NCBI RefSeq assembly: GCF_045037415.1 | Contig: NZ_CP173438.1 | Source of the DNA: Escherichia coli | Lineage (GTDB): Bacteria; Pseudomonadota; Gammaproteobacteria; Enterobacterales; Enterobacteriaceae | DNA: 64,000 bases | Direction: 5' to 3' (one strand) | Shown here: positions 57,001-60,000 of the stretch, piece by piece | How the letters are laid out: every line of letters starts with the position of its first letter | Position numbering within the stretch: position 1 is the stretch's first letter | Made by a program: the position numbers

Positions 57001-60000
57001 CCCGCCTTGTGGGCGGGTTCTTAAGAATTAGTGGTGCCCGGAATCGGAATGAAACTGATTGTATAACAAATTGTTTTATATAGATTATTTTGTATTTGTT
57101 GTTTTTGAGGCCACCAATGAGGCCCCCATGTGCAATTCGAATTCTTTTGACGCTATAATCCCTCTTTTTTGTGCTTTGCTGTAATCATTTGGTCTGGTTC
57201 GATATGCTGAATTGTGGAATCGTACTTAACGCGTTTGTTAGCTGGTCAGAACACTTAGCGCTGTTTGTCTGAAACTGGAATAGGCTTCTTCCCAGTTAAT
57301 CTGTGTATTACCAAATACCATCGGTTTAACAAATCGTTGAAAGCGCAATTTGTGTACAGGATAATCCCGGAGTGCATCCAGCCCTTTCTTAAGTTCATCA
57401 ACTGGTGAGCTACAAAATTGTGGGTACTGGTTACCATAGCTGAATACATATCTGAACAAAATTTTTCAATACAGGAACATTCACACCTTTTTCCCTGACA
57501 ATGCAGTAGTTGTCGTAAATGTGACGTACCAGAAACTCATCATCCTGTTGTTCGGGATTACGAAGATGTGCTGCTGTTCTTCGCATCATGGAGATGAGCT
57601 TTTCAGCCTGAGTGGATAAAATGGTGGCACAGGGGAATGCTGTTACAGGTGTACCTTTACCCGTTAACTCCGTGACAAGGGAATAAATATCTCTGCTTTC
57701 CGGATGTTCCAGCAGAGTGCTTTCCATCAACTCCAGCTTAATAAATGGACGAAGACAGGGGACTTGTGCAAATGTCTGGGGATAACGTACCGAGATTTCG
57801 TTATAACGATACTCATCACGTGTTATACGGGCGTTTTCATTATCCAAGCTGAAAATGTCAGAATTATGAATAACATCCGTGATTATTTGCACGATTTCCT
57901 TGCGAATTTTTCTTCTCTTGTCTCTGCCATTTTGCATAAAGTTCTCTGTTGGCACGAGCTTTATATCAATATCTTCTGACATTCTGTTTAGCGAGATACC
58001 TGCTTTTGATAATGCGGTACCTCCTGCAAACACGAGAGTATGTGTTTCTGGTTTTATTTCTTTTAATAATCTTAAAAGATCAACCACAAAATAATCTTTT
58101 TCGACGATAGCGACAGATTCAATATCCAGTGCATCGGCAACGTCAGGAAATAATGATGTTAATTCAGGCATTGATTTTACTTTTCCCTACTATTAACATT
58201 CTTTTAAATCGAGAAGGTGTTTTTATCCCCAGAGATACAGGAATTTGTGTGGACTGACTTTTATTGTAGCATTCCGTTGCTCCTGCCAGACGGTATCTGA
58301 TATTCAGGCGCTCCAGGGCCTCTGTAATTACTGCAGCAGAGCCCCCAGGCGCTGCGGGCATGATTTTCCCAGTGATGATGTTACGACGGGCTTTGGTGTA
58401 AACACCATAGCCCACTTTCATCAACTTACCTTCGTTTACCAGTGTACGAAGAGCTCTGCCAACCTGATCATAGCCAGCGATATCCCTGAAATCATCCCGG
58501 GTGAACACATAACGTTTTGAACGGTTCAGTCGGGACTGAATACGGTCTTTTGTAGTCATGTTTCCTCCGAAAAATTTTCACAATGATAGCAAAAATATGA
58601 CATGTTTAATAGCGGGGCAAGGCCACATTACCTGTCTGCTAATACATTTGGATAGTGCCTGGCAATTATGTCATTTAGCCTGTCAACCAGTTCTGGTTTC
58701 CTGAACGTGATGTGTGCGGAGCCCTTCTTAAAGTATCTGATGCTGAACATCTCATCTTCATAGCACGCTTTGCCCTGAACGGAGCGGATGTGATCATCCA
58801 GCCGAATGATGATATTTTCCCGGCTGTCGGGGATCGGTTTGCCGCTGAACAGATGCAGCATTCTTTCCAGGTCAGCGAGTCGATCTGCCTGTTGCCCGGT
58901 GATAAGATGCAATCCCCATCGGTCCCATCTCACCAGATTGTTGACGATAATTTTATTGCCAAATTTACAGGGGCAATTGGTTTTGTAATTCCAGCTCAGC
59001 CCTCTGAAGAGGTTGATCACACCTCGCTCAAACACGTCATCCTTATTCTGGTGCAGTTGTTCAAACGTACTCAGGATATTCGCCTCGCTGATTTCCGGAA
59101 AGTTATCGTACTCCAGTGAGCGGTACCATGTATCATGGGCCTGCGCATCCATTAATGACAGCATCCCGGAATGTTGCATCAGGTCACGCCAGATTTCGCG
59201 ATCGAGATTGCGGGTGATGGCTTTCATTGCGGTTTCCGGTTTCTCCATGAGCCAGCAGCCGCAGCGAAAATCCTGTTTCATCGCCCAGTCCAGGGCGGTT
59301 TTACCTCCAATACTTTCTGTCAGTACTGAGATTTCTGCCAGTTGCCGGATAAGTGTGTCGATTTGCAGCAGCGCACTCTTTCGTACAGCCAGAATGTGGC
59401 GGATACTGGTTGAGCAGATAACGTCCGTATGTCCGTTGACCAGTTCCGGGCGGGAGATTGTGATATCTGACATCATCGTTTTTCCTTTTGGTTTATAAAC
59501 GAAAACGCCAGCCGTATTCAGGCTGGCGTCAGTGGAATGAAGTCTGGTGAGTAAGACTCACCGGTTCTGTTGCAGAAGCTGCAGTTGGCGCAGGGTACGG
59601 ATATCTTCCCTGGCCTGTTTAATGCAGGGCAGCAGTGCTGCTGAATCCGTTTTATCCTCATCGTTGTCGAAGATAATCCCTGATTCGCAGTCAATATTGT
59701 CCTGCAGCCACGCAATCAGAATATACAGCGCTGTTTCCGTGGTTAATGATTTCATGTTGTGAATTTCCGGGTTACCAGTCGAAAGTGGGTAAATCCGGCA
59801 GGCATTCAGTGCTGGCATCCAGATGAATGAGACTGACGCCATAACGTCGGGTAAGTGTGACAACCAGACGGCGGAACGTTTTTGACAGCCCCAGGCGTTT
59901 AAGCCGCAGAACCGGGTATGACCACGCATCGGTACGTAACAGATATCCGCTACCTGTAAAATGAATCCATTCTGATTCGCCGGTGTCATTCGTCTGATGC

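Follow-up and report, generated by a model that had tools for sequence, protein, structure and literature searches.

A 14-bp deletion truncates the AbiEii-family toxin gene of a capsule-linked AbiE-like gene pair in Escherichia coli

At the right end of a pheV-type integrative island in Escherichia coli, shortly upstream of the kps gene cluster for the group 2 capsule of extraintestinal pathogenic E. coli (ExPEC), an AbiE-family gene pair was found in which the toxin gene is broken by a 14-bp deletion. The pair lies in a 64,000-nt stretch of contig NZ_CP173438.1 (assembly GCF_045037415.1), here called the window, to which coordinates refer unless a locus is named. Gene order, profile matches and homologues make it very probable that the locus is a two-gene toxin-antitoxin (TA) cassette of the AbiE family (DUF1814/MenAT-like), and comparison with undeleted alleles indicates that it is most likely a decaying TA module with an orphan, still intact antitoxin/regulator gene. 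The features of the pair are as follows.

58164..58559, minus strand: antitoxin gene, intact, encoding a 131-aa DUF6088 / short AbiEi-like winged-helix protein (open reading frame and profile matches)
58164..58171, minus strand: 8-nt overlap between antitoxin stop and toxin start, ATGCCTGA
57238..58171, minus strand: whole AbiEii (DUF1814) nucleotidyltransferase toxin pseudogene, 934 nt; the intact gene has 948 nt (315 aa)
57431..58171, minus strand: 5' part of the toxin pseudogene, a 246-aa open reading frame of 244 native residues followed by Leu-Trp-stop, with nucleotidyltransferase motifs I-IV kept
between 57441 and 57440, minus strand: deletion junction at which 14 bp, ACAGGATATTGAAC (codons 245-249, QDIER), are absent according to the alignment with undeleted alleles
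57238..57438, minus strand: 3' part of the toxin pseudogene in the +1 frame, native Y250-S315 and the stop codon, aligning with the homologue C-terminus

The first-pass annotation of this DNA had described a 131-aa gene overlapping by 8 nt a gene with an AbiEii-type nucleotidyltransferase (NTase) signature, and had noted that the NTase open reading frame (ORF) stops at 246 aa with the expected C-terminus in another frame. All of this was borne out, and the profile matches put the arrangement far outside what chance would produce. The two ORFs, 58164..58559 and 57431..58171, share positions 58164..58171; the signature segments FAGGTAL and SEDIDIKL both lie within the 246-aa ORF, which matches Pfam AbiEii (PF08843) with an E-value of 4.8e-27 over model positions 1-176 of 238. 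A third ORF on the minus strand (57238..57459), in another frame, contains the 3' part of the toxin, overlaps the upstream ORF at 57431-57459, and matches the C-terminus of homologues residue by residue (QDIERYGNQYP.FC.SP..EL..GL...P....FQ.FV.PMV.G....WEEAY..F). Restoring the 14 bp yields a continuous 315-aa protein, for which the Pfam match extends over model positions 1-236 of 238 (E 1.5e-29) and the PADLOC AbiEii model gives 6.3e-124. As a refuting outcome it had named homologues that end naturally at about 246 aa, with an unrelated downstream ORF; in the alignment with full-length AbiEii homologues none ends there. Those from Dickeya, Pectobacterium, Brenneria, Xenorhabdus, Photorhabdus, Yersinia, Serratia, Salmonella, Pantoea, Klebsiella and Enterobacter are 312-331 aa long, and the alignment passes the break without a frameshift. 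The window thus lacks the complete, uninterrupted toxin frame of intact alleles (246 aa versus 315 aa).

When the window was aligned with undeleted E. coli alleles of the same gene (loci L003, L004 and L006), the missing bases could be placed exactly at the junction given above, and a sister allele (S65EC, Eco889, CFT073) was found to lack 13 bp at the same place. Codons for Q245-R249 are eliminated by the 14-bp deletion, among them those for D246, I247 and R249, which are invariant in 33 homologues. The only repeats near the deletion are short and imperfect (TATTCAAC / TATTGAAC, 12 nt apart), together with a 1-nt microhomology; slippage is a plausible origin. A region of 1601 bp around the locus is 100% identical to many complete E. 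coli genomes, including O25b:H4-ST131, and 99.9% identical to Nissle 1917. On the identical 934-nt span, RefSeq annotation by PGAP gives a 'nucleotidyl transferase AbiEii/AbiGii toxin family protein', marked as a pseudogene and 'frameshifted'. The suggestion in the first-pass annotation that the toxin is inactivated and its antitoxin orphaned is therefore supported by a genuine deletion, with the adjustment that the lesion was already on record; the frame break is ordinary TA-module decay.

Two other explanations of the interrupted frame, both raised in the first-pass annotation, were considered and rejected. A sequencing or assembly error in the window is extremely improbable, because the same junction, counted as an exact 60-mer, recurs in 456 complete genomes that many laboratories assembled independently, using many sequencing platforms; the loss of 14 bp outside any homopolymer would moreover be an atypical error. 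A programmed +1 ribosomal frameshift restoring the full-length toxin would agree with the overlap of the two ORFs at 57431-57459 and with a downstream frame that stays open to the native stop. However, the undeleted E. coli alleles and the full-length homologues are all encoded in a single frame, and even a shifted product would be without the invariant D246, I247 and R249. The junction (...ATT CAG CTA TGG TAA C) has no slippery site, no prfB-like CUU-UGA context and no upstream Shine-Dalgarno stimulator, and the 13-bp sister allele would require a different shift, so that the chance of programmed frameshifting is negligible.

A census of 5426 complete E. coli genomes adds to the existing annotation by showing how widespread the lesion is. 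The allele family of the window was carried by 647 genomes, 456 of them with the exact 14-bp-deletion junction and 142, CFT073 among these, with the 13-bp deletion (some with an extra single-nucleotide polymorphism). The sequence was undeleted in the remaining 49 carriers; 47 of these have a TGG>TAG change at codon 298 (W298*; L003 3530..4423 and L004 3289..4182, equivalent to window position 57293), giving a 297-aa product without the conserved WEEAY..F, which PGAP annotates as an intact protein. By subtraction, full-length members of this allele family were left in about two genomes, e.g. strain C5 'plasmid A' (L006). A divergent allele of 93% amino-acid identity has an intact 315-aa frame; about 20 genomes carry it, 12 of them at >=99% identity and the other 8 at 95-99%. 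The toxin gene is truncated in roughly 645 of about 665 carriers (~97%), CFT073, ST131 and Nissle 1917 included.

The order of events was deduced from the haplotypes of six sequences. The deletion alleles have one haplotype in common, six sites away from that of the W298* alleles, so the nonsense mutation and the deletion are independent events. At position 58259 the 13-bp allele has the ancestral G and the 14-bp allele the derived A (G101S in the antitoxin). It is most parsimonious that the 13-bp deletion came first and that loss of one more C then produced the 14-bp allele.

The part of the toxin upstream of the break retains the hallmarks of the family. All four NTase motifs lie before residue 244 (G50-G51; R63/S65/D67/D69; K191..R198; D211/R216-D220) and are invariant or near-invariant in the 33 homologues; the definitions (hG[G/S] for motif I, DhD for II, a KLxAaxxR-like pattern for III and an acidic motif for IV) were taken from Dy et al. 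2014 (PMC3985639), with motif IV assigned by position and hence approximate. Mutagenesis has shown that toxicity of Streptococcus agalactiae AbiEii needs the four motifs (Dy et al. 2014, PMC3985639). In that protein T65, within an R-x-T-x-D-x-D segment, is the site of antitoxin-induced auto-phosphorylation (preprint 10.64898/2026.01.19.700257). Because the segment R63-M-S65-E-D67-I-D69, present in both the repaired and the truncated E. coli toxin, matches this T65 segment, Ser65 is, by analogy, the likely phospho-acceptor.

An AlphaFold2 (AF2) model of the repaired toxin was of high confidence (predicted local distance difference test, pLDDT, 90.8; predicted template modelling score, pTM, 0.89) and displayed the bilobed polymerase-beta NTase fold of MenT3 and MenT4. 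In a Foldseek search with this model, rather than with the truncated product, the best PDB match was MenT4 (6y56; E 2e-7, template modelling score, TM, 0.62/0.67), followed by MenT3/TglT. The relationship to the MenT toxins rests on the fold, since searches of PDB sequences gave nothing significant: phmmer with the toxin returned no match, and a profile search returned only MenT4 at an E-value of 1.1. Toxin, antitoxin and the upstream DUF4942 protein were all without a match in NCBIfam.

Judging from characterised relatives, the intact 315-aa AbiEii toxin would be a polymerase-beta-fold NTase that adds nucleotides to the 3' acceptor ends of tRNA and so stops translation. The 131-aa winged-helix antitoxin would neutralise the toxin, probably by inducing auto-phosphorylation of Ser65, and would probably also repress the operon. 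With the deletion at codons 245-249, translation of the toxin ends after 244 native residues and Leu-Trp. Motifs I-IV are kept in this product, but some five C-terminal-lobe helices are gone, and with them 19 residues that are invariant in the family (D246, I247, R249, Y250, G251, Q253, F257, E264, G268, L269, L272, R281, F285, P288, M289, V290, W298, A301 and F305). In the AF2 model the break falls inside the predicted helix 232-250, and helices 255-259, 261-274, 276-289 and 298-314 are lost. Because much of the C-terminal lobe is gone, the truncated toxin is most likely inactive, and the protein itself is most likely unstable.

The 131-aa protein encoded upstream is identical to RefSeq WP_000208384.1 ('DUF6088 family protein'), and its length is conserved across Enterobacterales. 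It matches Pfam DUF6088 (1e-7), Pfam AbiEi_4 over residues 10-54 (1.4e-4) and, over its full length, the PADLOC AbiEi model PDLC02229 (2.3e-51). The AF2 model (pLDDT 86) consists of an N-terminal winged helix and a small C-terminal part. Codon 101 (58257..58259) encodes Ser in the window, at a position where Gly is near-invariant across 36 homologues; the derived residue is linked to the 14-bp allele and may be a sign of relaxed constraint on an orphan antitoxin, although a single substitution is anecdotal. Many public records call DUF6088 homologues 'S-adenosylhomocysteine hydrolase', a label that looks like an old misannotation, passed on from record to record, for what is a 131-aa winged-helix protein.

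As in AbiE operons, antitoxin and toxin genes stand in bicistronic antitoxin-then-toxin order, overlap, and are kept together as a pair; the 8-nt overlap ATGCCTGA implies that their translation may be coupled. DUF6088/AbiEii pairs with an 8-nt overlap at the same position (ATGGATGA) were found in Pantoea, Dickeya and Salmonella, in genomic contexts that are unrelated or similar; the Dickeya pair adjoins a type I restriction-modification system. The pair behaves as a mobile two-gene cassette, because the same overlapping genes recur in three other genera in varied contexts.

Several observations weigh against the reading of the locus as a decayed AbiE module, either by questioning its family or by suggesting that the truncated toxin still functions. 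The antitoxin model was only weakly similar to solved AbiEi (6y8q; E 0.14, TM 0.38-0.41), no better than to generic Fur-type regulators, and the search otherwise returned generic winged-helix regulators; because of these weak fold matches, membership of the 131-aa protein in the AbiEi family rests on the hidden Markov model (HMM) matches. Promoter inverted repeats as in S. agalactiae abiE, a feature that is not universal in the family, were not found: crude consensus scans of the 68-nt intergenic region upstream of the antitoxin gene gave no convincing inverted repeats and no consensus sigma-70 match. Concerning the toxin, the break leaves untouched all four catalytic motifs and the putative phospho-acceptor Ser65, which precede it, the first 244 codons are nearly unchanged across ~600 genomes, and a TA deletion mutant of CFT073, whose own toxin gene is the frameshifted 13-bp allele, shows altered phage plaquing (PMC12488582). 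This phage phenotype could mean that the truncated toxin, or else the antitoxin, still has some function.

These toxin observations are what would be expected if the truncated toxin were attenuated but functional, with a 244-residue core retaining some NTase or antitoxin-binding activity and a truncation that was selected rather than neutral; the locus would then have kept a role in phage defence or capsule regulation. The placement of the lesions points the same way, since the 13-bp deletion and W298*, which arose independently as first lesions, are both confined to the last 71 of 315 codons, which has a chance of ~0.05 if lesions are placed uniformly. However, the lost segment is large and the break lies inside a helix, so that misfolding is likely, and a recent lesion explains the N-terminal conservation equally well (carriers share >=99% nucleotide identity). 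Public variants include additional secondary frameshifts and truncations; protein variants of short or odd length from metagenomes (191-304 aa) suggest continuing decay, but many of them are possibly contig-end or assembly artefacts and were not relied on. The published phenotypes are small and of mixed direction, and could have their source in the antitoxin/regulator or in a polar effect on kps transcription. We therefore regard an attenuated but functional toxin as unlikely, and rate the persistence of some activity in the 244-residue core as a similarly small chance.

A more specific version of the same idea, and one that seems slightly less probable still, is that the capsule-linked ExPEC AbiE locus has been domesticated: truncation would have been selected to yield an attenuated, non-lethal NTase core which, with the DUF6088 protein, modulates phage susceptibility or kps expression. 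This reading is based on C-terminal truncation having arisen at least twice independently and having reached ~97% of carriers. A decaying TA module with an orphan antitoxin gene remains the most likely interpretation.

The closest described system is that of CFT073, in which c3681-c3682 have been described as an AbiEi/AbiEii TA system of type IV that lies upstream of the K2 capsule genes, with an AbiE locus upstream of group 2 capsule genes conserved in more than 500 ExPEC genomes and a locus deletion mutant changed in its susceptibility to some phages (McGarry et al. 2025, PMC12488582). It is the same locus at the same island end and in the same position upstream of kpsF, with a near-identical allele (NC_004431.1 3509372..3510694; L015 14373..15695). 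The two alleles differ in the lesion: CFT073 has the 13-bp deletion and a 305-aa ORF with a 61-aa out-of-frame tail, whereas the window has the 14-bp deletion and a 246-aa ORF. RefSeq marks the CFT073 toxin as frameshifted; a text search of PMC12488582 for 'frameshift', 'truncat' and 'pseudogene' found none of the three. An AbiEii toxin cluster (44H), one not mapped to the window locus, has been reported in 82% of ST131 and 72% of ST73 strains (mBio 2023, PMC10790755).

Among experimentally studied systems, AbiE of S. agalactiae and Lactococcus (Dy et al. 2014; Arrowsmith et al. 2026 preprint) resembles the window pair in its bicistronic antitoxin-then-toxin operon, DUF1814 NTase motifs I-IV, the R-x-[ST]-x-D-x-D segment with position 65, and an N-terminal winged-helix antitoxin. 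In contrast, the window antitoxin is a 131-aa DUF6088 protein, while AbiEi of those systems is a two-domain COG5340 protein of ~195 aa; the window pair further differs in its truncated toxin, in the promoter inverted repeats that were not found, and in an identity to solved relatives that is too low for a phmmer match. The Mycobacterium tuberculosis toxins MenT4 (Rv2826c) and MenT3/TglT (Rv1045), the best structural matches to the repaired toxin and, for Rv1045, represented by several structures, are tRNA acceptor-stem nucleotidyltransferases controlled by phosphorylation, but share only 12-17% sequence identity with the repaired E. coli toxin and have a different type of antitoxin. The solved AbiEi structure 6y8q and Rv2827c combine a winged helix-turn-helix with a C-terminal antitoxicity domain; the window protein has only 131 aa. 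In Serratia sp. ATCC 39006, AbiE-1, AbiE-2 and AbiE-3 are functional TA systems in which toxin expression perturbs tRNA levels (PMC7725324). Serratia AbiE-A3 is an AbiEi_4-type antitoxin, a Pfam family also matched by the window antitoxin; the Serratia toxins are intact, unlike that of the window, and the likeness seen to the DUF6088-linked subfamily is at the level of the Pfam family.

The pair is the last cargo of a CP4-like island with the order Ag43, ..., YeeU/CbtA, DUF5983, DUF957, DUF4942 and then DUF6088/AbiEii. It is followed by an attR-like remnant, a terminator hairpin, an IS110 remnant and the kps capsule cluster. Two features beyond the pair belong to the island end.

57032..57055, minus strand: attR-like remnant of a tRNA-Phe 3' end, 21/24 matches (local alignment with the tRNA-Phe sequence)
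56995..57023, minus strand: intrinsic-terminator-like hairpin, 12-bp stem and T tail, directly after the attR remnant

Together, the tRNA-Phe remnant and the terminator mark where the island ends on its right side, ahead of the IS110 remnant and kpsF; over the whole window, ARAGORN detected no intact tRNA gene. A 51-aa ORF (56651..56806, minus strand) in the stretch from the AbiE cassette to kpsF corresponds to a C-terminal fragment of an IS110-family transposase, and RefSeq labels it an incomplete pseudogene in its identical sequence. About 2 kb upstream of the pair, the same island carries a CbtA-family toxin gene (60257..60634, minus strand). In the near-identical record of strain 4/1-1 the CbtA gene has a YeeU/CbeA-family antitoxin partner and is followed by DUF5983, DUF957 and DUF4942, and CbtA/YeeU is a second, apparently intact type IV TA pair on the island. 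Elsewhere in the window, Rfam matches at the gathering threshold were the C0719 small RNA (31694..31915, minus strand, 298 bits), the STnc490 Hfq-binding RNA (35165..35288, plus strand, 120 bits) and the JUMPstart element (38573..38611, plus strand, 54 bits).

Related islands have a ParD/ParE pair in the slot after DUF4942 instead of DUF6088/AbiEii (strain 165, L007 4339..4925), and what ~465 further records have in common with the window is limited to ~120 bp distal to the cassette (57100..57222). From these comparisons, the island end looks like a slot for variable TA cargo. At the two examined loci with the intact 315-aa allele (L016 4613..5948 and L018 3113..4448; one from a bovine strain), what follows the pair is not kps: it is either the gsp operon, directly adjoining, or another integrase. 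The kps-linked ExPEC loci examined carry truncated alleles.

The frameshift in this locus is thus real, explained, already flagged in RefSeq and widespread in ExPEC, and the capsule-linked ExPEC 'AbiE system' should not be assumed to have an active toxin. Because the toxin gene is truncated in ~645 of ~665 carriers, defence-system catalogues based on PADLOC-type HMM calls, and functional studies that count the locus as an active AbiE system, are probably over-calling it. Any phenotype of the locus should instead be attributed to the antitoxin/regulator, a polar effect on kps, or what remains of the toxin core.

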